From Nitrosopumilus sp. (GTDB taxonomy: Archaea; Thermoproteota; Nitrososphaeria; Nitrososphaerales; Nitrosopumilaceae), in the NCBI GenBank assembly GCA_965218695.1, contig OZ244651.1, positions 704,001 through 768,000 of the forward strand: a stretch of DNA of 64,000 bases, read 5' to 3'. This document shows, one piece after another, positions 1,482-54,306 of this stretch. The notes under the pieces were generated by a model. The model saw only the letters and a list, made by a program, of their open reading frames with translations, ran no database searches and was not told the origin of the DNA. How positions within the stretch are numbered: the stretch's first letter is position 1; every line of letters begins with the position of its first letter. Made by a program: the position numbers and the translations under genes.

Positions 1482-1490
1482 CCCTTTATC
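1482..1490 (+). promoter_or_regulatory. C-rich BRE/TATA motif CCCTTTATC
   Basis: First T is 29 nt upstream of ATG 1514. Confidence 0.5.
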
Positions 1491-1513
1491 ACTGACGGAA
1501 CACCAATAATGTC

Positions 1514-2249
1514 ATGAACCTGACCAACCCACGGATCTTCATCCCGCTGGCGTGGCTTGGCTTGACTTGGCTGCACGGCCGCGTATTTCGTGGCGGCGTT
1601 CTGGCTGCCGAGGCCTGACTTTGCAGTCCAGGAGACGGCAGTGTCGGTAAGCAGCATACTTGAGATTTGGTGGCACGAGATAATGGGGAGCGCGCCAGTG
1701 CTGATACCGGGGTTCGGCGCACTTTGGGGCATTCTTTCCAGCATGGGCTTTGCCCACTCCGTGTTCTTCATGTCAGAGAACGGTATGTTTGCCATGGGAC
1801 CGCAGTTCATGTTCGTGACGTTCCCGTTCCTTTCACTGTACTTGTTGGCGCAGTGCATCATGATCAGGCGCGGAATCCTGATACTCATGGCCTTGCGGCA
1901 GCCTGCAGAGACAGAAGAGGTGACAGCAGCGTACCACGAGCCCGAACAAACCGCTGGATGGAGCGAAAGTGGCAACGGGTATGGCATATCCATGCTTGTG
2001 GACAAGCTTGCTCCGATGGCCAAACCGTTCCTGCGAGATGCCGGCATATTCTTCGCTCTGCTGTTTGTCTCGGCAATACTGACGTTCGTGGCGTGAGGCG
2101 ATGTTCCGTCAAGCACGACACTCCAGGCATACTGGACGTACGACGGCATGCTCGACTATTTGGTGATGCTGCCAGACAAGATTGGGGAATTCGTGCCCGC
2201 CGTTGATTGGGATGCCGTGACCGGCATTATGTGGGATTCGCTTGCCTGA
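1514..2249 (+). pseudogene. Multi-TM membrane protein, frameshifted and with a premature stop
   Basis: ATG 1514 (MNLTNPRIFIPLAWLG) joins ORF 1590-2096 if 10 nt (TTGACTTGGC) are removed. The frame stays open for 50 codons past TGA 2094-2096, to TGA 2249. Confidence 0.65.
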
Positions 2250-2346
2250 TCCCCGGCCGGCGTGTCATAAGGAATTGATCTGCTGCCGCGTGAACAATCC
2301 GTAATGGGATCATGGCGGCATGCATAACTCACGTTAGACCATATTC

Positions 2347-2364
2347 AAAATAAAAAAAAGAAAA
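2347..2364 (-). terminator. Oligo-T terminator of the S-layer gene
   Basis: TTTTCTTTTTTTTATTTT on the minus strand just after the stop at 2379. Confidence 0.65.
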
Positions 2365-4285
2365 GGGGTGTGTGTTTTCTAGTTTACAGTTATTGCTATC
2401 GTTGCGGTCGGTGAGAGTGCAGTTGGGTTGTTGATGGATTCCCAGACGAACGCAGTCACGTCATACGTGCCTGCCTCATCTGGAGTCCAAGAGACTGCCA
2501 CACTGAGTGACTGTCCTTCTGTCAGCGAACCCTTGATCCAGTCAAGTGAGACCGTTACGCCGTTTTCATCCTGTACCTGTATGAGGTAGGCAAACTCTTG
2601 TGCCTTGTCCTGTCCGTTGGTCACGTCAGACTCTAGCTGAATCTGGGTGTCAACGGATACGGTGTCAAGCGTGTTGCCGAACGAATCGACTGCTCGCAGG
2701 TCAGATATTGGTGCCCTCTCCAATGGTGGTACGATAGTACCAATCAGAGTGGTGGCGCCTACCCTGAGCCTTTCTGTCTCCTTGAACGGTGCCGGTAGCG
2801 TGTTGTCGTAGTACTGCGCGGTAACGGTGTCGCCCTCTACTACCCTGAGCCTGTGGCCGCTGGTGTCAACTCCAACACCAAAGAAGACGGTGCCTTCAAA
2901 GATGCCGGTTGCAGCATTGGTCTCAGTCACGGTGAGGTCGATTCCGCCTCCGTCAGAGTCGGACCAGACGGTCACGTCGAAGTTGTCGACTGCCTCCGGG
3001 TTCAGGTTCATGTCAGGATCGATGATCCTCACTATTCCTGATCCGCTGGCAGGATAACTTGCCTCGAGCCACTGGACCTCGCCCACGTTCCACCTGATTA
3101 GGGCGGAGCTGCTGACAGTCTCGCCGTCAGAGAACTTGAAGGATACGGATATCCCGCTTTCACTGTCGGTTTCTATCTGACCGTCTGTAGGTCCGGTTCC
3201 ATCGGTTATTCCCGATGCGTCGCCGTCGTTGCCGTCGCCGTCTGCGTCATGGGTGCCAAATCCTGTCAGGATCACCTCGCCGGTAAATATGCCGGTGTCG
3301 GCGCCAGTCTCGACGAGCTTGTACTGTTCAAGCTCGTTTCCACGGGTTGATATCCTTACCGGATAGTCGTCGGTGTTGCCCACCTCGTCTACCTGGTCTG
3401 AGTCGGTGTTGTGGTCAGGTGCGACTACTGTCACGTAGACCTTGTCAGTCCACGTGTAGACGCGCTGGTCCAGCTCGATGGTTGCTCCAAAGTTAGACGT
3501 GTAGATGGTGGTGGAGACTTCCTCGTCCTTGTCTCCGACAAAGTCAGAGCCGGACGGTCCCCAGTCGTTGTACGTCAGGGTGATCTCCTCGCCTCGTTGT
3601 AGCGTGCTGCCGTCTATCTCGTCTGGAATCGTGACCACTACCTGGAAGATTCCAGTGTTGGATCCGGTTTCAAGGAGATTGGAGGGCGTCGCGCCGAACG
3701 CGCCATCGTTAAGCGTTTTTGTGCCTGCATCAGAGTCCCATTCGATCAGGTCAAGGACGTATGTCTCTGTGGTGTCGCTGTCAAGGTTCAAGTCTGGTTC
3801 GATGAGCGTCAGTATCGCGTCGCTTCCGAGGATGTACGCAGTCTGGTCGGACTGGAGTACGCCGTTTCGCAAGTCGAAGGTTGCAGAGTCAGTCACGGTG
3901 TTTGAACTGCCGGATGCGTCAGACGGGTCGTTGTATATCACGTGGAGAATGTCTCCCTGCAGTATACAGCCCGGAGATTCCAGTGAAACCTCGTCTAGGA
4001 GGTCAGGTCTCGGTTCCTCGACGTCGTTGCTAGTATTATCGTCGACGTTGTTCGCCTCTCGAATCGCTGTGACGTCGGTGACATATGTGGCATATCTTAT
4101 TGCGTTCTCTGCTTCAATCCTGTCATTTATGTCGTCAATTGTGTTTGCGTTTATTTCGTATTCCACTCCGTTGATGTCTATTGTGTCAGCCAATACGGCC
4201 ACGGGACAGTTGCTGTCAGACGGGCCTTTGTCGAATGAGACTTTCACCTCGTGCTCGAATATGCCCGAGTCAGGGGCAGTCTCTA

Positions 4286-5387
4286 TAGTGAAAAGTGAAA
4301 GTTCGTTCCAAGTTCAGCACCTCAGACCGAAAACTATGTAGATCAGCCGGTCGCCTAACGCGGCATGATCAAAGTAACACGGGAAGAACTCGAAGTAGCA
4401 TACAAAAAAGAAAAGGACCTCAGGGTGGGAGCCAGAATGCTTGCAGTACACATGGTACATTTTCGTAAAATGAGCATAGATGATGCGGCCGTCAATCTTC
4501 TGCGATGTCCCAGGTGGGTACGCAACTGGCTGGAACGCTTCGAGAATGGAGGTCTACAAGGCCTCCGGGATCTTCCCAGATCCGGCAGGCCGCCCAAGAT
4601 TTCACCTGAAGCAATGGACGGCATACTGGACAAGGTAGACCGGTTCAAGACCACTCCTGCCGAACTGCAACAGGTCATACACAGGGAGACGGGAACAAAG
4701 ATGCACAGGACGAACATCAGGAAAATCATGCAAAAATACGGTCTGTCCCCCAAGGGGTCGCAAAGGATCCACATCAACAGGGCCACCAAGGCAGCCGTAA
4801 AAAGCTGGCAATATCGCCTCAAAAAGAGAATTTCACGCCTAGAAAAAGACGGTTTTGTCCTGGCCGTGCAAGACGAGGCGTTCTTCATACACGACGTAAA
4901 ATCTGGCCGCAAGTATTGGTCCCCCGTGGGGGTGCCAATAACCGTGCCATACACTGGAAGCCACAAAAGAATTACCGCGTACGGTTCAATTACAATGGAT
5001 GGCAGGCAGTTCTTCAGGACTGCCAGCGGGTTTAACGCGCCCACTTTTGTTGCTTATCTCAAGGCCATGCAGAGGCATTTTGGGAAGGTTGCCGTCCTGG
5101 TGGACAGGGCGTCCCCGCACCGCGCAAAAGCCGTCCGGACGCTGCTGCGCGAGAACAAGAACATCAGGATCATATACCTGCCAAAAGGCTCACCGTATCT
5201 CAACGCCGTGGAAGAATGCTGGCACCAGGGAAAACGGAACCTGCTTGTTTCAGAATACTACAAAACCTTCTTGGACATGCACAGTGCCGTCTCCCAGTAC
5301 TATCGAACTGCGAGATTCAATCTGGATTTGATCAAATTCTTTAACAGAAAAGCCGAATTATTTTGCAAGAACTTTTGATCGCCACTA
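4286..5387 (+). mobile_element. IS630-family element
   Basis: Imperfect TIRs (TAGTG...AAAGTTC), TA duplication at 4284-85 and 5388-89, CTAG empty site. Confidence 0.92.
4365..5378 (+). CDS. IS630 transposase
   Basis: HTH-GRP N-terminus; QDE, VDRASPH and SPYLNAVE catalytic motifs. Confidence 0.93.
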   Translation: MIKVTREELEVAYKKEKDLRVGARMLAVHMVHFRKMSIDDAAVNLLRCPRWVRNWLERFENGGLQGLRDLPRSGRPPKISPEAMDGILDKVDRFKTTPAELQQVIHRETGTKMHRTNIRKIMQKYGLSPKGSQRIHINRATKAAVKSWQYRLKKRISRLEKDGFVLAVQDEAFFIHDVKSGRKYWSPVGVPITVPYTGSHKRITAYGSITMDGRQFFRTASGFNAPTFVAYLKAMQRHFGKVAVLVDRASPHRAKAVRTLLRENKNIRIIYLPKGSPYLNAVEECWHQGKRNLLVSEYYKTFLDMHSAVSQYYRTARFNLDLIKFFNRKAELFCKNF

Positions 5388-8109
5388 TAGTATTGGTGTG
5401 CCGTCCTGTCCTGCCGTCTCCAATGGGTACGTCTGGGAACCGCGGATTACTGAGACGCTCAAGAGTGAGGTGTCGTCGTCCGTCTCGATGCGGTCTATGC
5501 CGTTGGCTGACTGGTCAAAGTCGGCATCGTTGATGCTGACGTATACGGTCAGGCTGCCATCGTCAATAACCACGCCGTCGGTATGTGTTTCGAATACGGA
5601 GTTGTTCTCGGCGGTGCTGCCCATGGTTCCAAACGGTACCGGATAGACGGTCCTGTCAAGGCTTACGGATCCGGTGTTGGATCGTATTCCCGCAGAAGCG
5701 CTTACCGATATGGTTGAGCCGGAGTCGTCCCTGAAGTCAATGTACTCGACTGAGATGTCCTTGCCCGTGATGGACTCAACGTCGTCTGCATCCGTACAGT
5801 GCTCTGCCGGAGCCGCGAAGGTGCCGACAAACACGCCGGTGGCCGCTCCGGTCTCCTGAAGCGTGAACTGGGTGTCTGCAAGTCCATAGTTGCTGGTGGC
5901 ATCAGAGAAGTCTGATTCTGCACAACCGTGGTTGGTCCATAGCTCGCCGTCAAAGGATACACTGAGCAGTGCACCGAACTCGTCGTCGTCGTTGAGCGTG
6001 TGTACGAGCAGCAGGTCGCTGCCGACCCTGTCGTTGAGATTTTGCGTTTCCATCACTGCGGCTTTTGCCTCAACAGGTGGGTCAGCATCAGTATCTGCTG
6101 CTACAGCAGGTTCTGTTTCGATCATGCCAGAGACCACCGTATAGACGTCGGCCTTTCCGCTGTCAACGTTCAGGTCTGCGTCCTCTACCGTGACTACTAC
6201 CGTGTCGGCTACCCTGTAGCCGTCAGAGCCAAGTGACACCACGCCAGAGTGTGTCGGGGTGTCGGCCTCGGCCGTAAACAGCGTGGTTCCGCCGGTGGAG
6301 TCAAGGTCTAGGTATTCCACGGAAACAGAACCGTCGTCAGAGATCAGTATGATGGAGTCGCCGGATACATCGATGTTGCCGTACGTCGCTTCATCAAGTA
6401 TGTTGATCTGGCTGAGTCCGATGTACTCCAGAGTGCCTGTAAAGTCACTGCTGTCGTCTCCGTCCTCGTCGAGTTCAAGCCTGTAGATGGCGTCGTTGAC
6501 GTTAGTCTCTAGATCGGCTTCGAGGCCGAAGGTAAAGACGTCAAATGTTACTGCGCTGGTTTCAAGTGCGTCGTCTTCAGCGAATGTAAGCGTTATTCGG
6601 TTAGGCATCATTTTGTCCTCAGTGACAATATATCTGTCAGCATGGCTGGTCGAAATAGAGGTATTTATCTCATCAGCTTCCTCATTTACGTCGTCAGTAT
6701 CTGGATCATCTATAACTGCAGCTCTGAAGTAATTAACCGCAATAGTGGCGTCTTCAAATGCGCTAAAGTCATAGTTTACCACTTGGAATGTGGTATCGGG
6801 GTAGTCAGCAGCAGTCATGCCAGTCAAATCGATTGTTAGCGTACCTACCCTGGTTGCGTCGTCATCAACGGTTATCAGAGCTCTTTGACTGACAGCCACG
6901 TCCCTAACTTCGTCCGAGGAGGTGTTGCTAACACCAACAAGGTCGTCAGAGGTCAGGGTCGCTTTTATGTTGGTGGTAAGGGTCTGCGGTGTTCCAATCG
7001 TTATGGTTGGAATCATGTGGTCCGGATTTGAAATGTCAAGATCGTCGGCATTCCCCGTGTTGGTGTTGGCGTCGGCGTCAGTCAGCGTAATGCCGATCTC
7101 CTCGCCTGAGCTCCATTCGTCGCCTGCGTCTATCACGACGCGGGCAGTGCTGAACCCAATGGAACTTGTAGAGGTGCTGTCGTATGTGACTGAAAATGAC
7201 AATCCTCTTGCAGCGGCTGCAGTAGTGCTAAGTTCGTCGTTGATGAATTGGGTCTCGTTGTTGCCATCCTCCGTAAAGGTTATCGTGGCAATGGCGTCAG
7301 TTCTCTCGAAGATGTTGGTGCCCTGATTATCAGGATCGTCAACACCTGTATCTCTCATAACAAATGTGATGCTGTCGTCGGTAGTCTTGTTACTGCCATC
7401 GTCAACCAACAGGGAATCACCTCTCTGGTTGTGCGTGGTGATGCTGAGATCCTCGATATCGTCATCAGCAGCAGCATCGGCATCGGCAGTGAAATCGGCA
7501 GCACCGTTACCTAGGTAGGTTGCAGCACCGTTTTCGTCAAATCTCCATACGTCGTCGTCTGTTGGGTCGACGTTGAGTGCCATGTCGTCAAGCGTGATCT
7601 CCACGGCGGTGTTCTGCGGGTACGAGTTCCTGTCAAGGCTTACGCCGGATGCTGGATTGTCAAGATCCAGAGTCACTGTCTGATCGCCTCCAGGCCTCTG
7701 GTAAACGACGTCGAATTCGCCGGCGTCTGCATCAATTCTCATGACGGCGTCAACCGTAAGTGCAGGCTCAGTTGTTGGTGCGTTCCTGATATGGTTCTCC
7801 AAACTAACCGTACCGAATGGGAAGTCGTCTGATACAAAGTATCCGTACCAAGCACTACCCCTGAATCCCATTGTGAGATCTTCATCGTTAACTGTTACCA
7901 ATGGCTGCGTACCGGCTACATCCGTCAGTTCATCAAGGATCACGACCTGCACGATGTTGGTGTGGGCAATCTCGTTGCCCGCGTTTTGTCCCTCCGCTGA
8001 AACCTTCAGGTTCGGGTTGCTTGATATCTGTGCGGCCTGTGCCGGCTCCATGCCGGGTATGGCAAACGTGAGTCCGCCTGCCACCATTATCGTCATTAGC
8101 GTTAAACTA

Positions 8110-9332: not shown

Positions 9333-9341
9333 CCCTTAAAC
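9333..9341 (+). promoter_or_regulatory. C-rich BRE/TATA motif CCCTTAAAC
   Basis: 27 nt upstream of GTG 9363. Confidence 0.65.
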
Positions 9342-10522: not shown

Positions 10523-11350
10523 ATGATGGCAGAGTCGGCTGCCTCAAGGGGGATCGGCCTGTTGAGGAAACTTTCCGGAGGCCCGTGCCTCTGCAGTGCG
10601 GCGACTGCGATAAATGACGAGGTTGCAGGCGAGACACTGTGCGGGGTCTGCGGGGTCGTATTGCATGAGAGGGAGGCGCGTATGGTGTGGGATGGAATGG
10701 GAGGTTGGCACGATGTACGGCGCGCTACCGGGCGAAGCGGAAGGAGCATTACTGAATTTGTAACTACCCAGAGGATGGTCAGCGGCGCAACCGATGTCCG
10801 GCGGGATGCCCTGATGCGAACGATAATACCCATGCTGGAGCACGTGTCTGCCTCTGCAGTAATAAAAAACGAGGCAGAGTCGCTGGTAAGACGCATGACA
10901 TCAGACGGGTTTGCCAAAGGCAGGCACCGACTGACATTGTGCGCAGGGACGGTTCTGGCGGCATGCCGCGTGCACGGCCGCATGATAAGGCGCGAGGATC
11001 TGGCAATGCTCACGGGCACCAGTTTCAAGGGGGTGAGTCGGATTTCAAGGGGCATAATGGAGCGATACGGCCTGAAACCGCTCTCCATAGAGGACAGGAC
11101 AAGGCGCGTACTGTCCCGGATGTGTATCGATGTCGGCGCTCCCGGTCTGCTGCGCCCGGCGCTTGACACGTATGATGCCATGCTGCTTGCAGGGCATGCC
11201 TCGGGCAAGAGCCCGTATGTAGTGGCAGCGTACGTGCTCCGCCTCCACACGAGGCGCATAATGTCAGAAGAAAAGTTTGCAGAGAGGGTGGGAGTGCCGC
11301 ACCAAAGCATGCAGAGATATGTTGGGGGATTGATGCCCAATGCCTGCTAG
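10523..11350 (+). CDS. tfb: Divergent transcription initiation factor IIB (TFB)
   Basis: Zn ribbon (CLC...GETLCGVCG), two cyclin repeats (KGR...AAC; GKSP..VAA) and a C-terminal HTH. Start codon uncertain. Confidence 0.85.
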   Translation: MMAESAASRGIGLLRKLSGGPCLCSAATAINDEVAGETLCGVCGVVLHEREARMVWDGMGGWHDVRRATGRSGRSITEFVTTQRMVSGATDVRRDALMRTIIPMLEHVSASAVIKNEAESLVRRMTSDGFAKGRHRLTLCAGTVLAACRVHGRMIRREDLAMLTGTSFKGVSRISRGIMERYGLKPLSIEDRTRRVLSRMCIDVGAPGLLRPALDTYDAMLLAGHASGKSPYVVAAYVLRLHTRRIMSEEKFAERVGVPHQSMQRYVGGLMPNAC

Positions 11351-12563: not shown

Positions 12564-12575
12564 CCCCCTTTATAT
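12564..12575 (+). promoter_or_regulatory. C-rich BRE/TATA motif CCCCCTTTATAT
   Basis: 28 nt upstream of ATG 12597. Confidence 0.7.
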
Positions 12576-13315: not shown

Positions 13316-13978
13316 TCACTTGGATGTGGCCTTTGCAGCGCATACCGTATCGTCTGATCTTGCCTCTGCCAGATAGTCTGATCTTTTGCTTGTCTGGTTG
13401 CCGAATTCCTGCGTGGCGCTCCAGACGTGCGATTCAAACTCGGCAAGGCTTTGGGGTAGGGGGTCCTCCTTCCATTCCCCGTCTTCTGCCCGAATGCGCA
13501 TGGAGAACTCGGCTTCTTGGGTTCCGCTGTTTTGTGCCTCCACCACGTAGTATGCGTGACCAGAACCGATCTCAAACACGTCAAAGCGCAGTATCTGGCA
13601 TGACGACTCCCTCGTAAGCGAGTCTGCCAGCCCGCCGCCAAAAGTGTATGCGATTGCAGCGCCGGTTATGGAGATGCCGACTAGCAGCATGACGCCGGTG
13701 ATCTCCGAGACCATCCTGACACGCCTGCCGCGGCGGGGCGGGTTCAGAAAGCACGGGCTGCGCCTGATCAGCCTGCCATAATAGTACAGGTCAAGGGTGT
13801 AAAGCCTGCCGTCTGGCGTGTTCTTCACCGAGACAAGCCTCAGCACTTGATTATTGACCCAGATAGAGTCGTCAGGTCCAAGTTCCCGCACGAGTTCTGC
13901 GAGCCTTTCGGGCCTGAAGCCGAGGTGGCCGCAGAGTCGGAGAAAGTGTTCGTGCCGCTTGTTTTTTTGGTTCATCAT
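13316..13978 (-). CDS. Type IV pilin-like protein with an 88-aa N-terminal extension (alternative start ATG 13714)
   Basis: RRGRRVRM-VSEITGVMLLVGISITGAAIAY pilin helix and AQNSG motif; ATGA overlap with the virB4 stop. Confidence 0.7.
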   Translation of the reverse strand: MMNQKNKRHEHFLRLCGHLGFRPERLAELVRELGPDDSIWVNNQVLRLVSVKNTPDGRLYTLDLYYYGRLIRRSPCFLNPPRRGRRVRMVSEITGVMLLVGISITGAAIAYTFGGGLADSLTRESSCQILRFDVFEIGSGHAYYVVEAQNSGTQEAEFSMRIRAEDGEWKEDPLPQSLAEFESHVWSATQEFGNQTSKRSDYLAEARSDDTVCAAKATSK

Positions 13979-15483
13979 TCCACCGCGGTGTTGAAATACG
14001 TCTCAGTCTCTTCTTTTGTCGCCTCGAACTTTACCTTGACCCGGTGTTTTTCAGTTATTATCAGTCCCTGACCCTTGGCAAACCTCATCAGGCGTTCGGT
14101 CTCCTCGTCTGTGAGATTCATTATGTTTTGGGCCGACCTTGCCGCGTCCTCTTCGAGCCTCATCAGAATCTTGGTTCCCATGTTGTCTATCATCTTGCCC
14201 TCTGCGCCCTTTTCCTGCGCGATGTCATCGACCCTTTGCGAGATGAAGACGAACTTTACGTTCAGTTTCCTGCCCATGCGGACGATCTGTTCTATGTACG
14301 CCATGGCGCCGGGCATCTTTGTGAGTAGCCAGCCCTCGTCGACTACGATTATCTTCTGGCGGGACTCGGGCATCTCTATGACCCTCTTCCATATCTTGTT
14401 CAGGACCAGCAGCAGTATCAGGACTTCATGCGGCTTGCCGGTGGCGCCGCTCAGCGATATTATTGTGCGGTCTGTAATCTGGGACTGCCCCTGCATGATC
14501 TTTGCCAGCGGACCCTCCACGAGGTGCTGCAGGTATTTTTTGGAATGCTCGCTTACCTGGTCGTACAAGTCATGCACGGACTTTACCTTGTCGGCAAACC
14601 TGAAGAACTCGTTGGATACTGCCTTGTCCTTGTCTTCTGCCTGCGTGACACCGGCAAGTATGGATGCAGCGTCTGCGGGATCCAGGATCTTGAACGGGTC
14701 GATGCCCAGCTTCTCATCGCCTGTAATCATCATGCCGTCAAGGCCGTAGTACCGGCGGTGCCGGTAGTACTCGTTCATCGGATCCAGCACGAATACTGCG
14801 GGGCCCTCTTCTGTCTCGTCCTCGTCTAGCAGCCTCTGGATGAGCCGTTTGACAAATATCTTTGCCGTAAACGACTTGCCCGAGCCAGACGTGCCTATTA
14901 TGGCGACGTTTCCGTTGGTGCGGCGGACGATGTCGTATATTGCAGGACCGTGCGAGTCCATGTTGTACCCCAGCAGCACGCCGTTTGGCATCTCTATCAT
15001 CTCTGCGGAGACAAACGGGTACACTATGCTCATGAATGACTGGTCTACTGTTATGTAGTGGACCCACCTGCCATGGTACAGGCTTCCCTGGCGGCTCATC
15101 GTGGCATCGAACTTGCCTCCCGTGATGCGCGTGTGCCTGAAGAATTCCTTTGTGTTTGCGTTTAGTTCCTTGAGGGTCTTGCCGTAGAGCATCACAGTCA
15201 TGCCAAACCGGTACATCTTGCCGACGCCGTTGTTTAGCATGTCCTCGACGGACTCTGCCTTGGCGTACTCGTCGGCTGCCCTCCTGTCTGTCTGGGAGCG
15301 CTTAAACAGCATCGAGCGCTTTTGCCTCAACAGGTTCAGCGACTGCTCCCTCTCCAGCGGATCCACCCACACGTCAATCTGGTTGCATGCAGAAAACACG
15401 CCGTGCACCCACGCCCACTGGAGTTGCGAGGGAACGTCGTAGAGTACCATGCACCTGACAAACCCCCCAGAATACTCCATGTG

Positions 15484-16819
15484 CAGTAATCCCAGATGTG
15501 CTCACGGAGCCACGGGATCTGGCGGTGGCTCGGGCTGAATCGTAATATTCCGATAGATTGCTATTAGCGTGACAATTTTCATATACAGCTGCGTCACCGG
15601 AAGGACTCCGTCACGCAGCTTCAGAAAGCTGGCCAGCTGCGCGTTTACCAGCACCCACGCATTGAATAGCATCAGCGAGTACAGAAAGCAGAAAAGCCGG
15701 GCAGGCCTACTGCTGCCGAACGATTTCGCCCTGGCATTCTCTACCAGTCTGTAGCATGTCTCGATGGTCCACCTTTTGGAATATTCCTCTACATCCATCC
15801 ACGGGGCATTGGTGGCAAACGCAATGTATCGATCTTCCGGCGCACCTGCCTTCTTGTCCCCGTTCTTCGCCCCCTCACTTTCCTTCCTTACTCTCTTCTT
15901 CTCTGCTATGATCATGTGGTACTGAACCGTTGCCTTGTCAGAATTCGTCATGTCGGATTTTGAGATGGGGCCGAGCGTTTTGGCCACGAACTTGCGCAGC
16001 GAGTCTTTCACCCTACTGGTTCTGGTGCACGGCATCAGGTACTCAAGGCTAAGACGCTCAATCTCGGATATTGAGTTCACTGAAAAGAAGCCCCTGTCAA
16101 CCAGGATCAGTCCCAGCCTGGATCCGACGGCGGAGACGTTTTCTAGGCACGAATTGAGGATTTCACGCAGGGATTCGTGCACGGATGAGGACTTGTCCAC
16201 GTATAGGGCCGCAAGGATAAGCCGCGATTTGGAGTTGACGCACTGCGCCGTGATGTACGCCTCGAATCTGTTGGTGCCGCTCTTGCGCTCTCCGCCTCTC
16301 AGGTCAGAGCCAAGTTTCTTGCTGTGGCACGGTATCAGGTGCATGTCGATGGCCACATCAAGCACATCAGGCAGCCTGCCAAACAGGTAAAGCTCATCCA
16401 GCTGTGCCCTTACCGCCTGGTTAAAAGTCTCAAGCGCCTTACCCTCGTCCGTCTTGGACAGGATATCGCGAAACCACTCGTCGCTTGGAGAATGACGTGA
16501 ATATCTTGGATTCTCGATGGACTGCGCCGTGATTTCTCTCATGGCGAAGCTGCATCCGCCGACCGAAGTGTCAAGCATCGCGGCATGCAGCATGCCGACG
16601 TTAAAGTCGCTTGCGCCATATGTCGCGTTGTACCTTTTGGAGACCTCGGCGGACGGCACGATGCTTTCTCTCAGCACCTTCTCAACAGATTCATATATTT
16701 TGCCATTGTTCATCATATCGCGTCTCAGGCGATCTTTTTGGTGGTACATAAGGATCGTCTGGGCGTGCCCCCATTGATCTGTTTGCATCAGGTGCTAGAT
16801 GGCACATCTGGGATTACTG
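15484..16819 (-). mobile_element. ISH3-like (IS4 superfamily) element
   Basis: Perfect 18-bp TIR CAGTAATCCCAGATGTGC; 6-bp direct repeat CATGTG. Confidence 0.92.
15502..16788 (-). CDS. ISH3-like DDE transposase
   Basis: VAIDMH, LVDRGF and YSKRWTIETCYR motifs; start uncertain. Confidence 0.88.
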   Translation of the reverse strand: MQTDQWGHAQTILMYHQKDRLRRDMMNNGKIYESVEKVLRESIVPSAEVSKRYNATYGASDFNVGMLHAAMLDTSVGGCSFAMREITAQSIENPRYSRHSPSDEWFRDILSKTDEGKALETFNQAVRAQLDELYLFGRLPDVLDVAIDMHLIPCHSKKLGSDLRGGERKSGTNRFEAYITAQCVNSKSRLILAALYVDKSSSVHESLREILNSCLENVSAVGSRLGLILVDRGFFSVNSISEIERLSLEYLMPCTRTSRVKDSLRKFVAKTLGPISKSDMTNSDKATVQYHMIIAEKKRVRKESEGAKNGDKKAGAPEDRYIAFATNAPWMDVEEYSKRWTIETCYRLVENARAKSFGSSRPARLFCFLYSLMLFNAWVLVNAQLASFLKLRDGVLPVTQLYMKIVTLIAIYRNITIQPEPPPDPVAP

Positions 16820-17166
16820 CATGTGCCCCAGCCTCTCCCGCTCAAAGGTTATCCTTGCATGCTCGTCGTCGACGGTATACTCGTACATCAGTGTATCCAG
16901 CATGCCTGTGAGCGGCTCGTTGGAGGCGACTAGCACCTGCAGCACCAGGCGCATCTCGGTCCTGCCGCCTACCATGAGGGGGACCGACTTGCGCGAGAAC
17001 GTTATGCGGATCGGCTTTTCAATGGAGCGCAGCAGATCCAGAAATTCGCCAATCCTCTGCTTTTGCCTATCCTCCGGAAGGGAGTGAAAGTTGGACGGAT
17101 CTATGGTGTAAAAGTATTCGAATCTGTTCTTCTTTTTTGCCGGCACCCTTTGAAGATTCGTGTGGG

Positions 17167-17179
17167 TTAAAAAGGGGGG
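17167..17179 (-). promoter_or_regulatory. C-rich BRE/TATA motif CCCCCCTTTTTAA (virB4)
   Basis: 27 nt upstream of GTG 17146. Confidence 0.7.
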
Positions 17180-18894: not shown

Positions 18895-19161
18895 AAATTT
18901 TTGACAGCAGGGCTAACATGTCAGCGCGGAGTTTGAAAAAGTTCCGGATTACGCATATTTTCTATTAAGCAATAGGCTCGTCAGGGAAATAGCTGCATAG
19001 CCAGGACGCTTGAAAACTCTAGTCCTCGTTGACTCGTAGCTTTTCAAATATTTTAGGATCCATCCAATATTCTGGTCTTTGATGAAATTCTTTACCTGCA
19101 AAGTCCTCCGGCTTTAATTCATGTATTCCTGTACCCGCTCTCGCTCTGCCTTCGTTCTTTG

Positions 19162-37504: not shown

Positions 37505-39448
37505 CTAAACCAGTCCGCCGATCATCTCCTTGATGTGTGGCAGTGCCACGCACAGCGCGGTTCCAAAGGTTGCCATCATGCAGACGTGCACGGTGTGCTT
37601 CATTGTAAAGTACGTTATCTTGGAGACAAGGAGCCCGATGAGTATGGTGCATTCGACTATGAGGAGGCTTGACTGTTTGGCCGTCTCTTCTGTCTGCTCC
37701 GGGGTGGGAAAGTTTATCGGCATTGCCTGGACGGCCTCCAGGTCGCCTGTGACGTTGCCGGTCATCTCCGAGGTTACAACCAGCATCGCCACCATGATTA
37801 TCGGTATGACGTATCCCATGACGACTGACCCGCGCAGCGACGCCATCATCTCACGCCTGGACTCGACATAGTCCTTGACAAAGTTTGTAAACGTCTGCAG
37901 GGAATGGGTGTCGCCGCCGCCGCTCTCCTGCACCTGCGAGAGTACAAAGAAGAGTACTCTTGAGAGCCATGACGTGGTGCGGGCCGACTCTGCAGCGGCT
38001 GCCAATGACTTGCCAAACATCATCTGCCTGGATATGTCGCGCAGTACGGGGCCGAGCGCGTCCCTTTGGCCGTTGCCTCTGGCCCGAGCCGTGACGGCCT
38101 CGTGTATCTCCATGCCCTCCAGCCTGCCGTCGGTGACAAACTGCGCAAACGCCGGCAGCGCGTCATCCATCCTTGATGTGCGAGAGAAGCGACTCCTTGC
38201 CATGAATGCGTTCGTGCCTGCCCATACTGCCGTCGCTGCCCCCAGGACTCCCCAGAGCGGCACGCCTGCAATCATGGCAACCGGAATCGACAGGAATGCC
38301 AGCACAAGCGGTGGGCGGTACAGCGGGACGGCATTGTGCGTCCGCGGCTGCTTGCCGTCGACTGCCACCAGCAGCACTATGATGATTATCGGGAGAAGTA
38401 TCATCACCATTATCGTCATGGACATGGCGTCTTTGCCGGTGGCCACAAACGTGGTAGCTATGGCCAGTATCGGCATGACTGCCATTACCAGCAGCACCAT
38501 CTGGGCGATTCCGTTTGCCTCGGCAGTATAGGACTTTACGCTGTTTCGCATAACGCGGAACGCAGATTCGGTGGCTGCAATCATCGTGTTTGCAGTGTTT
38601 GTGCCGCTCGTGTTGTATGCAGCCGAATAGTTCGTGACTATCTCCCTAAAGTCGTTGTTTGGGTGGGTCTCTGCCACCTTGCGCAGCGCCGTGGTGTGCG
38701 ACATCGCCATGTACCTGACGTTGCGCTGGAATATCAGGGCGTCTTGCCGCAGTATGGGAAAGAGCGCGGTACCGGACCTTGATATCCTTTCTATGAACTC
38801 GTAAAATGACACGCCGACCTTCTCCATTATGCTGGCGCACGCGATGAATACGGGCAGCTCGTGGCCTATTGCGGACTTGCGCTGCGACTTGGCGTTCTTC
38901 AGCTGGAGCAACCCGCTGAACAGTATGGCAACTGGAACGGCGCACAGCCCCAGAAAGCCGGGGTGGAAGAGCATGGCAAGTGCGGCCGCTGCTGCGACTG
39001 ACGGCGGCGCGGACAGCATGGCGTACATTATGCCGTGCCTGGCAATCCTCATGGAGTCGTTGGCGTGTCCGGACTCGAATATCGCCGTGCGCGTCTTTCC
39101 GACCAGGTACTCTTCCAGTCTGCGCACGGGGGCAATTGACATGAAGGGCTTTAGCATCGTCATGGCGCGGTCCGCCGTCACGGGTTGTGCCTCAAGGAGC
39201 GCGCCGAAGCGTCCGTGCCTGACTGCGATGCCAGAACCCGCCGCCTGTGGCTCTTCTTCCCCCTTGTGCGTCCTTGAGAACAACGGCCTGATCCTCTCAC
39301 GAAAGATGGCTGCAATGTCGGTCTGCGTGAGGACCATGAGCGTGATGAATACTGGTGTGGAGATGGCAAACAAGCCGGACTGGCCGAGTGCCATGAATGC
39401 GCCCATGATGCCGAGCATTCCAAGCAGCGAGGTTACGGGGAGGCGCAT
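37505..39448 (-). CDS. Type II secretion F / TadC / FlaJ-like pilus platform protein (two repeats)
   Basis: Multi-TM; ELPVF and ALPAF...QESGG modules. ATG 39448 is supported by promoter spacing. Confidence 0.85.
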   Translation of the reverse strand: MRLPVTSLLGMLGIMGAFMALGQSGLFAISTPVFITLMVLTQTDIAAIFRERIRPLFSRTHKGEEEPQAAGSGIAVRHGRFGALLEAQPVTADRAMTMLKPFMSIAPVRRLEEYLVGKTRTAIFESGHANDSMRIARHGIMYAMLSAPPSVAAAAALAMLFHPGFLGLCAVPVAILFSGLLQLKNAKSQRKSAIGHELPVFIACASIMEKVGVSFYEFIERISRSGTALFPILRQDALIFQRNVRYMAMSHTTALRKVAETHPNNDFREIVTNYSAAYNTSGTNTANTMIAATESAFRVMRNSVKSYTAEANGIAQMVLLVMAVMPILAIATTFVATGKDAMSMTIMVMILLPIIIIVLLVAVDGKQPRTHNAVPLYRPPLVLAFLSIPVAMIAGVPLWGVLGAATAVWAGTNAFMARSRFSRTSRMDDALPAFAQFVTDGRLEGMEIHEAVTARARGNGQRDALGPVLRDISRQMMFGKSLAAAAESARTTSWLSRVLFFVLSQVQESGGGDTHSLQTFTNFVKDYVESRREMMASLRGSVVMGYVIPIIMVAMLVVTSEMTGNVTGDLEAVQAMPINFPTPEQTEETAKQSSLLIVECTILIGLLVSKITYFTMKHTVHVCMMATFGTALCVALPHIKEMIGGLV

Positions 39449-39468: not shown

Positions 39469-39481
39469 TTAAAAACGGGGG
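39469..39481 (-). promoter_or_regulatory. C-rich BRE/TATA motif CCCCCGTTTTTAA (tadC-like)
   Basis: 27 nt upstream of ATG 39448; back-to-back with the pilin promoter. Confidence 0.7.
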
Positions 39482-39498: not shown

Positions 39499-39507
39499 CC
39501 CTTATAA
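39499..39507 (+). promoter_or_regulatory. C-rich BRE/TATA motif CCCTTATAA (pilin)
   Basis: 27 nt upstream of ATG 39529. Confidence 0.7.
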
Positions 39508-40612: not shown

Positions 40613-40622
40613 CCCCTTAAAT
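40613..40622 (+). promoter_or_regulatory. C-rich BRE/TATA motif CCCCTTAAAT
   Basis: 26 nt upstream of ATG 40643. Confidence 0.7.
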
Positions 40623-44491: not shown

Positions 44492-45886
44492 TCAGACCAC
44501 TTTAAGATCTTTGGCTTCTGTCATCAAGTCCCTGTGTATGTCTAGTGCTTCTGCGGGAGTCATTAATTTCTTTTTTGTTCCATGCTTGATCAGCGAACTA
44601 AAAATGACGGATTTGACGCGCTGGTTTCTCGCGTCTTCATTCCTCTCATATTGGCGGTATAGCGGATGTTGCCGGTTACAAACAAAGTTGTTGGTTTCTG
44701 GATCAAGCCAGCCGTCACGAGGATCGCCGTACCGGTCTACCAACGTGATGTTGAGGTCGCTTCCGCCGCGACTGTCGTTCTTGTTATTTTTTCGTTCTTT
44801 GTCGGTTGATTGTCTAGGCGGTTCTTCAGGGGGGAGTTTTGCATTTCCCGCTCCGGCGCCCTTGCCAGGCCCAATTTCGTTCGTTACGCTTGGATTTAGC
44901 CATTCATATTCCGGCTTTTTAAATAATTTTTGAAAAAACCTTGACAGTTTGGCGTTGCGCTGGATTTCCCCAACCGGTTTTTCCACGTATCCATGCTTGC
45001 GAAGCGTCTCATGCGCCCAGCGTTCAACTCCCTTGTACATGTCCCCTACGGGACCCTGTCCGCTCTTGAAACTGCTCTTGTTTAGCTTGAGATATTTGGA
45101 ACACTTTTCCGCGTCAATCATCACGTGTACGCGGTTCTTGTAAGGCTCCGTGATCTCTGCCGCCCATTCAAGCTTCTTGGTTGTTATGTTCTTTCCCCAT
45201 ACCTGGTATTGTAGATAGCGCCATTTTGCAGGAATGTCTTCGCACATTACAGTCAGAGTGACCGGAAACACGAGATGTCTGACCTTTACAGTATCGCTTG
45301 TCTGAAATTCATGCGGCGGCTTCCACGCTTCTAATTTGTCGTCGTTGATTGTGACTGTCAGGCCATTGAGCAGGGCGGGATTAAACTCGTTAAGCAAGAT
45401 CTCGTGTAGCTTTGTTTGCAATGACTTGTAATCATTCTCGCGAAGTTTCACTCCATACGACGTGCCACGGATCCTCAGCGCCGTCGCAATATTACACTCG
45501 TTCCATTTTGGCGTTCCGTGCTTGACATACATGTCCGACACGAATGGGCCTTCATCACCGTATGTTTCCGTGCGTATTACCGTGTTTTTCCATATGGCAA
45601 GGTAAACCTTTGCCCCAACACCCGCAAAGCCAATTCCGCGTCCTTTCGTCTTGGTGGATCCGGATATCTTGTGGTATGCCCTGAACTGCTTCCGGTTCAT
45701 TCCCGGGCCGTTGTCCTTGAACGTTATCGATTGGTCTTTGAGTGTTATGTCGACCATGTTTGCCTTGGCATCAAGCGCGTTTGCCATTGCCTCCAGCACG
45801 ACCACCGATGTCTCGTCGTCATACGCGTCACGAAAGTTTTCAAGCGTATGCATTACGTTGATTTCTATGTCGTGTTGTCTTGTCAC
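44492..45886 (-). CDS. GHKL (MORC/HSP90-like) ATPase
   Basis: EAMANALDA, DNGPGM, GFAGVGAK and GT Bergerat-fold motifs. Confidence 0.9.
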   Translation of the reverse strand: MTRQHDIEINVMHTLENFRDAYDDETSVVVLEAMANALDAKANMVDITLKDQSITFKDNGPGMNRKQFRAYHKISGSTKTKGRGIGFAGVGAKVYLAIWKNTVIRTETYGDEGPFVSDMYVKHGTPKWNECNIATALRIRGTSYGVKLRENDYKSLQTKLHEILLNEFNPALLNGLTVTINDDKLEAWKPPHEFQTSDTVKVRHLVFPVTLTVMCEDIPAKWRYLQYQVWGKNITTKKLEWAAEITEPYKNRVHVMIDAEKCSKYLKLNKSSFKSGQGPVGDMYKGVERWAHETLRKHGYVEKPVGEIQRNAKLSRFFQKLFKKPEYEWLNPSVTNEIGPGKGAGAGNAKLPPEEPPRQSTDKERKNNKNDSRGGSDLNITLVDRYGDPRDGWLDPETNNFVCNRQHPLYRQYERNEDARNQRVKSVIFSSLIKHGTKKKLMTPAEALDIHRDLMTEAKDLKVV

Positions 45887-47889: not shown

Positions 47890-47898
47890 CCCTTTTAA
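47890..47898 (+). promoter_or_regulatory. C-rich BRE/TATA motif CCCTTTTAA
   Basis: 26 nt upstream of ATG 47919. Confidence 0.7.
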
Positions 47899-51060: not shown

Positions 51061-51735
51061 TCAGACAGGCAGAATGGCCCCAACCGGGGAGAGGAGGGCC
51101 AAAGCAACCAGGACAGACGCAGGCACGGCAGCAACGGTAAGAAACGGCACGGCATACTCTACATACTGCGTGTCTGAGGGCTCGGCAAACGCCTGGCCCA
51201 CAGGCTTGTGCCCCAGCTTGAACCTGCGCCTGCCGTCCACGACGTTTTCTGCAAGGAAGGCATGCCTGTCAAACACCCTCTGCCGATGCACCATGAAGAA
51301 CGCCAGACATTTGCGCCACCATTCCTCAGAGACGTCGCCAAACACCCCGCCACGCCTCATGGCATCAGAGGCGTTCAGCAGCGCGTTTCCCGCCACCACC
51401 GACACTGCTGACAGCGCCGTCGCAAATACAAACAATGCCAGCATCGTGGGTATTATGCCCAGATGCACCGGGTGTATCACGGCGCCCGTAATGATGGCAA
51501 GCGCGTCTGCGGTTCCTGCAAGCCTGAGCCTCCACAGCATGACTGCGCCGCCGGCCGAGCACAGCATGACCAGCACCTCGTAGCCGTTTGTGGCCTGCCA
51601 GTCAAGCAGGTATAGCGCGGCTCCTGCGGCGCCGAATGCAAGAAATATCCTGTCGCTTATCATGCGGGTACGGAAATCACACCAGGCAAGCACAAAAAAC
51701 ATGGCCAAAAACAGCACCATGCGGATCTCGTCCAT
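51061..51735 (-). CDS. Prepilin peptidase (A24, PibD/TadV-like)
   Basis: CDFRTRMISD and GTAD catalytic aspartates; YAVPFL C-terminus; multi-TM. Confidence 0.88.
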   Translation of the reverse strand: MDEIRMVLFLAMFFVLAWCDFRTRMISDRIFLAFGAAGAALYLLDWQATNGYEVLVMLCSAGGAVMLWRLRLAGTADALAIITGAVIHPVHLGIIPTMLALFVFATALSAVSVVAGNALLNASDAMRRGGVFGDVSEEWWRKCLAFFMVHRQRVFDRHAFLAENVVDGRRRFKLGHKPVGQAFAEPSDTQYVEYAVPFLTVAAVPASVLVALALLSPVGAILPV

Positions 51736-51755
51736 GGAATGGAGCCACGGGGGGC

Positions 51756-51763
51756 ATAAAAGG
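51756..51763 (-). promoter_or_regulatory. C-type BRE/TATA motif CCTTTTAT
   Basis: 26 nt upstream of ATG 51735. Confidence 0.55.
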
Positions 51764-52216: not shown

Positions 52217-52226
52217 CCCCTTTTAT
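52217..52226 (+). promoter_or_regulatory. C-rich BRE/TATA motif CCCCTTTTAT, separated from prgI by IS630
   Basis: 26 nt upstream of GTG 53502 once the IS plus one TA is removed. Confidence 0.75.
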
Positions 52227-52244
52227 CTGCCATGATTTCACGTA

Positions 52245-53497
52245 TACCAAAAGTGAAAAGTTGATGCGATTGTCACATATTTTACCGCATCTAGAGTTAT
52301 ACCAATTTCACGTCCCACAGTCAATGAAGATCAAGACGATGTTGAAAAGATACACCGCTGAGACAGACTGCGATACCAAGGACCGCATGATGCTGATCAT
52401 CAGAGTCAAACGTGATGGAATAACCATGAGGGATTCTGCAAAATCCCTGGGAAAGTCAGCCTCGTGGGGCTACAAGTGGCATGAGCGCTACCTGGAAGTC
52501 GGATTTGACAGGCTGGGAAACATGCCGCGCTCCGGCAGGCCGACCAAGGCGAGCAAGGCAGACATGAAGAAGATCAGAAAGGCCGCATGCAGTAAACCGG
52601 TCTGGACGGGCAGGGAGATGCAGCAATACATCCAACAGAAGACCGGAGTAAAGTACGAACTCGGATATGTGCGCCAGATACTGCGCGGGTGGGGCTATTC
52701 CCAAAAGGTTCCCGTAGGAAAACATGCAAGAAGGGCACCTGACGAGGAGATCAGGAAATTCCAAAAAGAGATGCCAGAGATTATAAAAAAAGAACAGTGA
52801 AGGAACAGTCGTAGCGATACAGGACGAGTCCATAGTAATCTCCGATGCGCGGCCGCGAAGACGCGGCTACACCAGGAAGGGAATACGGGCGTTTTTCACG
52901 TACACCGGCTCACACTCCAAGACGATAATCCATGGACTAATCACCACGGACGGCAGGGGCATGTTCCGGCAGTACGATGCGTTTACCAAGGACACCTTTG
53001 AGGACTTTCTAAGGCAGGCGATGTACAGGTTCAAGAAGATCTGCCTGATCATGGACAAGGCCTCCCAGCACAGGGCATCAAACATACGCAAACTGCTTGA
53101 TGGCACAGACGGCCTGGAGATAATCTTCCTGCCAACTGCAACCCCGGACCTGAGCGCCATAGAGACGTACTGGAGGGATCTCAAACGGGCAGTGCTTGAC
53201 GTGCCGTACACCAGCCTGAGCATGCTCCGCGAGGCGATCACCCGGTACACGAGGTACAAAAAACCGAATCTGGTAGTCGAGAATTTTCTGTACAGGGCCA
53301 TCTAGAACGACATCAAACCGCACCGGATCCACGCCGCCTAGCGTGTGCCATGCACGGCGCACCAGAGCATGCAATGTCTAATGTTTGGAGCGTCTTTTCT
53401 CGTCATTTGGGAATTCAACGCACCTCGTAATTTCCAGAGACGGCTGTTGCATCAAAAATTTATGAGCGATTTTGATATGAATTTTTCATTGCTGGTA
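52245..53497 (+). mobile_element. IS630-family element
   Basis: TIRs TACCAAAAGTGAAAAGTT and TACCAGCAATGAAAAATT; TA duplication. Confidence 0.9.
52324..53305 (+). pseudogene. IS630 transposase split by a frameshift near an A7 run (about 52785-52800)
   Basis: HTH half ends at 52800; QDE, MDKASQH and PDLSAIE continue in the +1 frame. Confidence 0.8.
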
Positions 53498-53501
53498 TAG
53501 T

Positions 53502-54173
53502 GTGATTCAAAAGCTGGTCTTCTTTAGGAACACGTCGACGATTAATGAGACGCTGTACAGCAATCCGGTCGGGCAGCTTTCGGTCCGCCAGACGCTGATC
53601 CTCGGGGTCGGGTGCGGTATCATCCTGCTGGGTGCCATGATGACATACAACGCGGAATCAAGGATCATGGACGCTGTATACTATCTTCCTTTACTGATAA
53701 TTCCGCTCGTGCTGGGCCTGTACAAGCCCAAGGTGCTGACGATGGACGAACTGCTCTGCTCCATCATCACCTTTGCGATAAGCGGCTCGTCGGTCAGGCG
53801 GATCTCCAGATCAAGGCCCAAGAGAACCGGCAAGGCAAGAGGCGTCGGCAATTCCAGCAGCCGCATGGGGTACAACACTCTGGAGTGCCAATACGTTCCA
53901 AAGGAGAACATGCGCGCCGTCACGGTGGCAGACCTGACAAAGCCGACGCGCCTAAAGCTGGTGATACAGAGGCCCGACGGCGGAGCGTTCGTAAACCATT
54001 TTGTATCCGTATACCTGGACGGCATCCGCGTCACTGCAATGACTACTGACAGTGCAGGCGAGGTCGAGGCCCTCGTGACGCCGGGAACAGAAGGGGTGCA
54101 TTCGTTGAGGGTCGTGGCAAAGGGGTATGACGAACCTGTCATGGATGGCAAGGTAAAGTTTCAGCGTGGGTGA
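53502..54173 (+). CDS. PrgI/VirB3-like membrane protein with a C-terminal beta-sandwich
   Basis: GQLSVRQ, two TMs, then LGLYKPKVLTMDE. Confidence 0.72.
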   Translation: MIQKLVFFRNTSTINETLYSNPVGQLSVRQTLILGVGCGIILLGAMMTYNAESRIMDAVYYLPLLIIPLVLGLYKPKVLTMDELLCSIITFAISGSSVRRISRSRPKRTGKARGVGNSSSRMGYNTLECQYVPKENMRAVTVADLTKPTRLKLVIQRPDGGAFVNHFVSVYLDGIRVTAMTTDSAGEVEALVTPGTEGVHSLRVVAKGYDEPVMDGKVKFQRG

Positions 54174-54174
54174 G

Positions 54175-54227
54175 TGGCACTGGCAATTTATCGGCAGGCG
54201 GCACCTGCCGACAAGTTACCAGTATCC
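54175..54227. repeat. Imperfect inverted repeat (possible MITE relic)
   Basis: GGCACTGGCAATTTATCGGCAGG paired with CCTGCCGACAAGTTACCAGTATCC. Confidence 0.6.
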
Positions 54228-54295
54228 TGTGTTTCCAGGGCTCGAGACGATACCATTCCCAGACGGCCCATCGGACATCATGCCGCAATAATCTG

Positions 54296-54306
54296 CCCCT
54301 TTTAAT
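54296..54306 (+). promoter_or_regulatory. C-rich BRE/TATA motif CCCCTTTTAAT
   Basis: 26 nt upstream of ATG 54326. Confidence 0.7.

Follow-up and report, generated by a model that had tools for sequence, protein, structure and literature searches.

The window analysed here, a stretch of 64 000 nucleotides (nt) at C1:704001-768000 of the genome of a Nitrososphaera-like, ammonia-oxidizing archaeon (2.63 Mb, 52.8% G+C), contains an integrative-conjugative element (ICE) that we name ICE-B; a paralogous ICE on C1 of the same genome is named ICE-A. Dispersed transfer, pilus and associated genes of ICE-B share a promoter design in which a run of C residues abuts a short TATA box, and the first T of this box mostly lies 26 or 27 nt before the start codon. 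It is highly probable that the combination of C-run and short TATA is a real and selected promoter class, specific to ICEs. ICE-B also encodes a divergent TFB, and the sequence evidence makes it possible, at a little under even odds, that this protein reads the C-run as its B recognition element (BRE).

By Pfam scans of the larger open reading frames (ORFs) of the window, ICE-B has the gene set of a thaumarchaeal-type ICE, with a VirB4-type ATPase, TadC, a FlaI/T2SSE ATPase, pilins, a prepilin peptidase and VirB6 all encoded. The Pfam matches of the peptidase and pilins were under the cut-off, but homologues of them exist in ICE-A.

A C-rich promoter class

Genes (2249 in the genome) were called with a home-made, hexamer-scored ORF picker, and the promoter of a gene was defined by the first candidate start that had a TATA-like run whose beginning lay 24-34 nt upstream. 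In all, 1243 promoters were obtained, with ICE and host genes treated alike; for promoter counts the ICE-A compartment was set at C1:523-664 kb. Two C's stand before the first T in 68 of 1129 host promoters, in 10 of 23 of ICE-B (Fisher tests for these counts, P = 6e-7) and in 23 of 69 of the ICE-A region, and three C's in 17/1129, 8/23 (P = 6e-9) and 12/69 (P = 1e-8), respectively, the promoters of the two ICEs being homologous and hence not independent counts. The contrast with the host is conservative, since the 68 host CC cases include 13 copies of two promoters that belong to insertion sequences.

The same place is taken by GG in 95 of 1129 host promoters, 1 of 23 in ICE-B and 4 of 69 in the ICE-A region. 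A raw scan, which uses no gene calls, found CCCC followed by TATA 50 times in the genome, with 7 occurrences in the window against 1.2 expected, and GGGG followed by TATA 16 times, with 1 in the window against 0.4 expected. Because G-runs are enriched neither in the promoter counts nor in the raw scan, the enrichment is one of C, and G+C richness was ruled out as its cause. The C-run is moreover strand-asymmetric, C being enriched on the coding strand and G not.

An unbiased k-mer contrast over positions -50 to -11 of all called genes leads to the same words. The top k-mers of ICE-B are CCCTT (9/46, host 32/2044) and CCCCTT (5/46, host 3/2044), and the top k-mer of ICE-A is CCTTTT (16 of 118 genes, host 20/2044). 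An earlier note on this DNA, made from the sequence without database searches, had held that its proposed regulon would be refuted by a motif equally frequent upstream of host core genes; by k-mer contrast and promoter counts alike the motif is rare in the host. When CC promoters were counted in 30-kb sliding windows, the ten richest all fell within the two ICE regions.

Relative to the TATA run, the BRE position of host promoters is A-rich (A 35-43% at -3 to -6, 43% at -4), and the purine- or A-rich consensus of the host is not matched by the ICE promoters (A and B together, n = 92), where C makes up 41-54% at -1 to -3. The TATA of the C-type is short, of the TTTTA(A/T) or TTAAA type and often followed by GCC, and the 2-6 C's fill the end of the BRE position that is nearest to TATA. 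A palindrome or operator was considered and rejected, as the sequence is C-rich on one strand on both sides of TATA (CCC TTTTAA GCC).

The C-type motif reaches past the C-run, with an A-rich tract at -8 to -11 and, downstream of TATA, G-C-(A/C)-A-A-n-C at +6 to +12 from the first T (e.g. CCC TTTTAA GCCAAA), although the information content of this extended motif is inflated by paralogous pairs. Leaderless geometry is not particular to ICEs: TATA-like words peak 25-32 nt before starts genome-wide.

What does set the ICE promoters apart is the spacing of TATA. In 26 of 33 ICE CC promoters the TATA run begins at -26 or -27, against a host mode of -29/-30 in this genome. For promoters with one unambiguous A/T run of 5-8 nt, to which the test of TATA centres was limited, the centre is at -24.25 in ICE CC promoters (n = 20), compared with -26.36 in host promoters (n = 482, P = 7e-6) and -26.83 in host CC promoters (n = 30, P = 3e-4). 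The same shift is present in 15 other genomes, where TATA runs most often begin at -27/-26 in ICE CC promoters and at -29 to -31 in the host. A shift of ~2 nt would fit shorter ICE leaders, and would also fit initiation ~2 nt nearer TATA.

C-run sites in the window

The 13 strong and three weak sites that the earlier note had listed all lie where it placed them (Table 1). Its description of them needs some adjustment: the C-run lies directly against the TATA run at 12 of the 13 strong sites and is parted from it by one G at tadC; a run length of 2-6 C's holds overall, with the peptidase site at the lower end; and a first T at 26-29 nt before the start holds for the strong sites with the exception of prgI as it now stands, where an insertion has come between. 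With that insertion taken out, the distance from the first T to the GTG would be 26 nt. The inserted sequence has at least 10 near-identical copies elsewhere in the genome.

The division into classes drawn in the note is borne out for four genes of its other class, the position of the C-run being AT-rich in the zinc-finger gene 11579, ardC and the GHKL gene, and purine-rich in host gene 61630. So is its caveat that the motif also precedes tnpB outside the ICE, where it belongs to insertion-sequence copies. Among 100 genomes of the genus, the tnpB promoter 19-mer was found in this genome only, in 3 copies. The tnpB copy in the window has GTT where the copies at C1:826267 and C1:919164 have a GTG start, 28 nt past the first T; its frame now starts at ATG 61938 and encodes 353 amino acids (aa), compared with 357 and 406 aa in the other copies.

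At the first site of the window the frame from ATG 1514 is open for 34 aa only, while the ICE-A homologue has 146 aa. Window positions 1514-2096 are 90% identical to the ICE-A copy that encodes these 146 aa, and the gene, although its promoter is intact, has probably become a pseudogene through a frameshift.

Table 1. Promoter sites and genes of ICE-B and its right flank, in window coordinates. A hyphen within a sequence marks the border between C-run and TATA run; C4, C5 and C6 are runs of that many C's
Feature	Position (strand)	Sequence	First T	Details
C-run site, first gene	1482-1489 (+)	CCC-TTTAT	-29 from ATG 1514	
C-run site, pilin-like gene	9333-9340 (+)	CCC-TTAAA	-27 from GTG 9363	
Pilin-like gene	start 9363 (+)			GTG start; 157 aa
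TFB-like gene (tfb)	10523-11350 (+)			275 aa from ATG 10523; 296 aa from TTG 10460
Zinc-finger gene	11579			86 aa; next gene after tfb
C-run site, 113-aa gene	12564-12575 (+)	C5-TTTATAT	-28 from ATG 12597	
Pilin-like gene	13316-13978 (-)			
VirB4/HerA-like ATPase, C-terminal part	13975-15480 (-)			501 aa; severed from N-part by insertion sequence
Transposase ORF (DDE_Tnp_1)	15502-16788 (-)			in insertion sequence splitting virB4
VirB4, N-terminal part	16814-17146 (-)			start GTG 17146
C-run site, virB4 N-part	17167-17179 (-)	C6-TTTTTAA	-27 from GTG 17146	
C-run site, T2SSE/FlaI-like ATPase	25211-25223 (+)	C5-TTTTAAAA	-27 from GTG 25243	
T2SSE/FlaI-like ATPase	25243-26763 (+)			start GTG 25243
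ArdC	26836-27630			
Weak site	27883			ahead of a 33-aa frame only
C-run site, giant gene	28219-28229 (+)	C4-TTTTATT	-26 from GTG 28249	
Surface protein (giant gene)	28249-33210 (+)			1653 aa; start GTG 28249
TadC	37505-39448 (-)			647 aa; start ATG 39448
C-run site, tadC	39469-39481 (-)	C5-G-TTTTTAA	-27 from ATG 39448	G parts C-run from TATA
C-run site, pilin	39499-39507 (+)	CCC-TTATAA	-27 from ATG 39529	
Pilin	start 39529 (+)			ATG start
C-run site, virB6-like gene	40613-40622 (+)	C4-TTAAAT	-26 from ATG 40643	
VirB6-like protein	start 40643 (+)			ATG start
GHKL ATPase	44492-45886 (-)			
C-run site, orf47919	47890-47898 (+)	CCC-TTTTAA	-26 from ATG 47919	gene product 368 aa
Weak site	50084			G between CC and TATA
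Prepilin peptidase	51061-51735 (-)			start ATG 51735
C-run site, prepilin peptidase	51756-51763 (-)	CC-TTTTAT	-26 from ATG 51735	CC only
C-run site, prgI	52217-52226 (+)	C4-TTTTAT		now parted from prgI (GTG 53502)
IS630-like insertion sequence	52242-53499 (+)			1258 bp; between prgI promoter and GTG 53502; duplicated TA flanks
PrgI-like protein	start 53502 (+)			GTG start
C-run site, orf54326	54296-54306 (+)	C4-TTTTAAT	-26 from ATG 54326	
Mrr-like gene	54582			after orf54326
Weak site	56694-56700 (+)	CC-TTATA	-26 from ATG 56722	50-aa ORF
Integrase-like gene	58538-60364 (-)			right end of element; only weakly matched in Pfam; other paralogues in the genome are 41-43% identical
C-run site, tnpB insertion sequence	61748-61756 (+)	CCC-TTAAAA		outside ICE

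Conservation in ICE-A and in other genomes

ICE-A, at about C1:523-650 kb, is syntenic with ICE-B, and by BLASTP the proteins of the two paralogous elements are 38-84% identical. Eleven homologous promoter pairs (9363, 12597, virB4, T2SSE, the giant gene, pilin, virB6, 47919, peptidase, prgI and 54326) retain TATA and a C-run of at least CC, while the surrounding intergenic DNA has diverged. The promoter of the zinc-finger gene 11579, which is of the AT-type, is kept as AT-type in ICE-A.

VirB4 homologues are found in 105 of 401 genomes of the family, a tally that includes three unpublished genomes used in no other comparison. A promoter was callable at 24 of the 29 VirB4 loci that were fetched, and has C at -1 in 21, C at -2 in 17 and CC in 16 of these; in every one of the 24 the first T falls between -26 and -28. 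In the majority of these loci the G+C content is just 33-44%.

For 15 genomes, 40 kb around VirB4 were compared with two 20-kb host controls per genome. CC-TATA promoters number 65/375 around VirB4 and 19/404 in the controls (odds ratio 4.2, P = 1e-8), and their fraction is above control in all genomes but one (G012); C at -1 is present in 44% and 26%, respectively (P = 8e-8). Orthologues of T2SSE, VirB6, PrgI, pilin and the large surface protein have the same C or CC before TTTTA or TTAAA, and even where the proteins are only 25-45% identical their promoters keep the C's amid diverged flanks, which argues for selection. The earlier note had suggested repeating the analysis in related ICEs; so repeated, it finds the C-run conserved both in ICE-A and in the ICEs of the 15 other genomes.

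Large inserts interrupt ICE-A at ~551.5-585.9 kb and ~601.7-621.7 kb, and virB4 is in pieces in this element too. Its part at 624-650 kb is very rich in CC-TATA promoters, which make up 9 of 19 in the 620-650 kb window. A third ICE-related stretch, at C1:475000-502000, holds paralogues of surface proteins of the window (2379-4247 and 5385-8096) and of its prepilin peptidase, and a short TFB-like gene (489746-490465) of a type seen near VirB4 in six other genomes.

The element's TFB

Ten TFB-like loci were found in the genome, and the recognition helix GV(T/S)(E/D)VTIRNR is common to the four full-length host TFBs; a host TFB lies, for instance, at C1:1076874-1077959. The TFB of the window has the complete TFB fold, with a putative ribbon of the CxC...CxxC pattern, a pair of cyclin repeats and, at the C-terminus, a helix-turn-helix. 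Pfam recognizes one cyclin repeat (28.8 bits) and matches the ribbon to Zn_Ribbon_TF at 17.4 bits, under the 29-bit cut-off; among the TFB-like loci of the genome its Pfam match is the weakest (26 bits).

A word-indexed search of the protein collection found 5 relatives, and the CxC...CxxC pattern is present in three of the four full-length members of the family so defined. A profile built from this family could be aligned to both cyclin repeats of TFBc from Pyrococcus woesei (1D3U_B residues 4-190, E = 7e-7), setting GVP..SM.-RY, one residue shorter, against RVTEVTVRNRY. An AlphaFold model has ten helices in residues 87-264 at a modest mean pLDDT (predicted local distance difference test) of 57, and its top Foldseek matches are all TFIIB or TFB.

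The recognition helix, GVPHQSMQRY, departs from the canonical GVTEVTIRNRY in being one residue short and in having Q at both the V and the R position. In human TFIIB this V and R reportedly contact the BRE (Lagrange et al. 1998). The changed helix thus fits an altered BRE specificity, without by itself showing a preference for C.

Alignment scans of genome contigs and metagenome contigs found no relatives of the window TFB; a six-frame profile search of 400 genomes found them in 14 other genomes of the family, mostly tens to hundreds of kb from VirB4.

No TBP gene was found in the window. Of the four TBP genes of this genome, one belongs to the ICE-A region. A divergently transcribed TBP-TFB gene pair lies inside an ICE-A insert at C1:552778-554630. 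Another TBP gene (2261808-2262368) directly adjoins an integrase paralogue (2262461-2263816), and one at 1613989-1614570 is ~6 kb from an integrase paralogue at 1606681-1608045. It may be that mobile elements in this genome bring along complete sets of general transcription factors.

A TFB gene at C1:644075-646052, interrupted by an insertion sequence that encodes a 346-aa transposase (644375-645415), is directly upstream of a gene for a 907-aa protein homologous to that of the first gene in the window. This TFB gene has an ICE-type promoter itself, GGCCG-TTTTAAGC, with the first T at -27. The same insertion sequence is found upstream of an 885-aa gene that runs into the window (701317-702357).

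What may read the C-run

The reading we favour, to which we give a probability of about 0.4, is that ICEs of the Nitrososphaeraceae may have a private initiation system, in which divergent TFBs together with a host (or element-borne) TBP read a C-run that replaces the A-rich BRE and initiate ~2 nt nearer TATA, so that conjugation and pilus genes form one regulon invisible to host factors. The C-run would be read sequence-specifically by an ICE-encoded factor, most likely the divergent TFB of ICE-B or, in each other ICE, the equivalent TFB-like protein. With host TBP and RNA polymerase this factor would make up a private initiation complex, in a role like that of an alternative sigma factor in a phage or plasmid cascade. 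Host TFBs, with their canonical helix and A-rich BRE, would use C-run promoters poorly, and the transfer genes would not be expressed before the ICE factor had been produced.

A dedicated element-borne reader is favoured because the conservation is specific to C, the motif is strand-asymmetric and restricted to ICEs, and it is nearly absent from host promoters served by canonical TFBs. The promoter class is confined to the element, and a candidate specificity factor is encoded on ICE-B. As to the private regulon that the earlier note proposed, its cis half stands, in this genome and in relatives: a C-rich element marks dispersed transfer and pilus promoters and not those of the host. Its trans half, the assignment of the element's TFB as the reader, stays tentative.

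Several findings weigh against a TFB as the reader. The note had looked to covariation of helix and motif, and none was found among the ICE TFB-like proteins compared, because the C-run is shared while the helices differ. The TFB-like genes near VirB4 are of at least three very different types with different helices, and the relatives of the window TFB in 11 other genomes bear further variants, e.g. GVSEPGLRNLL. ICE-A has an insertion sequence at the position of the ICE-B tfb and no orthologue of that gene, and has the same promoters; the TFB-like set of its region consists of a TFB with the helix GITDVSLRLL, which adjoins a TBP gene, an insertion-disrupted copy with GISEAVLREL and a 678-aa fusion with one cyclin repeat. 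Six of the 15 other ICE regions carry a short TFB-like type (236-281 aa, one recognizable cyclin repeat), one (G385) has the near-canonical helix GITNVTIRSR, and in eight no TFB-like ORF was found within 20 kb of VirB4.

Helices that vary beside a C-run that does not would also suit a weak-BRE design, in which host TFB binds poorly and some other ICE protein recruits host TFB and TBP or relieves repression; candidates for this activator are a truncated, TFB-like co-activator comparable to Sulfolobus TFB3 and a recruiting protein like TFB-RF1 or EarA. Many of the TFB-like proteins near VirB4 are short, with one repeat and no profile match to solved TFBs (the 236-281-aa type had no PDB match by sequence profile), and so may not read DNA as a TFB does. 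The A-rich tract that often lies 6-11 nt upstream of TATA (A 55% at -9) is a possible binding site, and there are precedents in TFB-RF1, which activates weak-BRE promoters (PMC5937170), in EarA and the BRE of the fla promoter (PMC5512572) and in TFB3 in the UV response (PMC6101591). We nevertheless think such a design unlikely. Any base other than A would serve it, yet C specifically is kept, and not G or T, even at 33-38% G+C, which argues that the C's themselves are recognized; no second regulator common to the ICE regions came up in BLAST, and the 2-nt shift of TATA is left unexplained.

Host machinery alone could be enough if C-run and short TATA were a structural or positional feature read by ordinary host TBP and TFB. 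A rigid C/G tract might, for instance, fix the position and direction of TBP on a 6-bp TATA, the feature being inherited with the transfer module and the ICE TFBs doing otherwise. The lack of covariation agrees with this, and so do further points that likewise count against a dedicated reader: three tnpB insertion-sequence copies outside ICEs carry GCCGCCC-TTAAAAGCC, ~1.5% of host promoters have CCC-TATA, family-wide conservation is strongest at -1 and -2 only, which is less than a whole BRE, and the related ICEs share descent and are not independent samples. Host promoters, however, avoid the design (CC 6%, and less without insertion-sequence copies) and have TATA ~2 nt further from the start, and if it simply made good promoters host genes would use it. 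The C's that stay while flanks diverge also speak for selection and not for inertia, and we regard this explanation, too, as unlikely.

An artefact of base composition, start choice or repeated sequence is very hard to credit. The promoter sets do rest on a home-made gene caller with starts picked by a TATA-like run, which counts against the favoured reading as well; ICE-A and ICE-B are paralogous, and insertion-sequence copies repeat promoters. The procedure was identical for host and ICE, however, and G-runs are not enriched; the raw scan and k-mer tests, where the motif is independent of gene calls, agree, as do 15 more genomes with host controls of their own.

State of the element

ICE-B contains at least 11 transposase ORFs and is on this account decayed. 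Its virB4 is cut in two by an insertion sequence and its prgI promoter severed by another, so that the promoter circuit in this copy is a relic. A nest of insertion sequences at window positions 17581-23478 holds two IS5-like transposase ORFs, 17581-18894 (-) and 20822-22075 (+), and two IS66-family ORFs that are equally long, at 19190-20596 and at 22072-23478; outside this nest ICE-B has five IS630-like ORFs. To the right of ICE-B are tnpB (61938) and a TrkH gene.

Rfam searches of the window gave no family at gathering score. ARAGORN called a 93-nt tRNA-Gly(GCC) at 28102-28194, between ardC and the giant gene; no Rfam tRNA reaches gathering score there, and the counterpart site in ICE-A is without a tRNA. 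The call may represent an intron-bearing tRNA, a remnant or a false call.

Relation to known systems

That TFIIB homologues occur on thaumarchaeal ICEs and in type IV pilus loci is already published. In one survey, all thaumarchaeal ICEs identified encode such homologues (PMC6563490, Krupovic et al. 2019); in another, they are predicted more often than any other regulator in the type IV pilus loci of archaea (PMC4858521, Makarova et al. 2016). No transcription-related genes other than those for TFB-like proteins are known from such ICEs (PMC6563490; PMC4858521). ICE-B has the same VirB4, TadC, FlaI-like ATPase, pilins, peptidase and VirB6 and a TFIIB as the ICEs and pilus loci there described. 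TFIIB lies directly upstream of a ParB-like gene in most, though not all, of the surveyed ICEs (PMC6563490), in contrast to the TFB of the window, after which there is no recognizable ParB gene: Pfam scans of the window ORFs examined found none, and the next gene after tfb is the zinc-finger gene 11579. The word 'promoter' is absent from the main texts of both surveys, and, supplements aside, we found no description in the literature of a C-rich BRE-like element or a shifted TATA for such ICEs.

The closest working analogy is the paralogue-specific promoter use of TFB and TBP in haloarchaea, exemplified by the BRE of Halobacterium salinarum hsp5 (PMC2396416). There too several TFBs are present per cell, promoter choice is thought to depend on BRE and TATA, and the factors are seen as sigma-like regulators. 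The present case differs in that the extra TFB is on a mobile element, with its putative targets confined there, in the C-run and in the shifted TATA.

The eukaryotic upstream BRE, SSRCGCC, which the helix-turn-helix of TFIIB reportedly reads (Lagrange et al. 1998), is likewise G+C-rich, ends in C and lies directly 5' of TATA, and sequences of the GCCGCCC-TTTTAAG type resemble it. The ICE element, however, is archaeal, its conserved part is of 2-4 C's, and those helix residues which reportedly read the eukaryotic BRE are replaced in the ICE TFB.

The logic would be that of phage and plasmid sigma factors such as SPO1 gp28 and T4 gp55, where an element-borne specificity factor goes with a promoter class unserved by the host; the present candidate belongs to another protein family and another domain of life, and a cascade here is inferred. 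In Sulfolobus, TFB3 switches on genes for pili and DNA transfer (ups, ced); it is truncated and works with TFB1 instead of reading a BRE of its own, whereas the window TFB has both cyclin repeats and the helix-turn-helix. TFB3 is likewise an alternative TFB paralogue, but a chromosomal and stress-induced one (PMC6101591).

Implications

Archaeal genomes often hold many TFB and TBP paralogues, for which a sigma-like role has long been asked, and clear pairs of factor and motif are few. The locus offers an easily recognized, strand-specific promoter class, conserved in many genomes, on mobile elements associated with TFB. The combination of C-run, short TATA at -26 or -27 and start codon could be used to flag ICE genes and their true starts in thaumarchaeal genomes and metagenome-assembled genomes, and could help to explain how costly transfer genes are silenced in ammonia oxidizers. 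If the private initiation system is real, it would be an archaeal counterpart of the sigma cascades of phages and plasmids, conserved across genera of 33-67% G+C.

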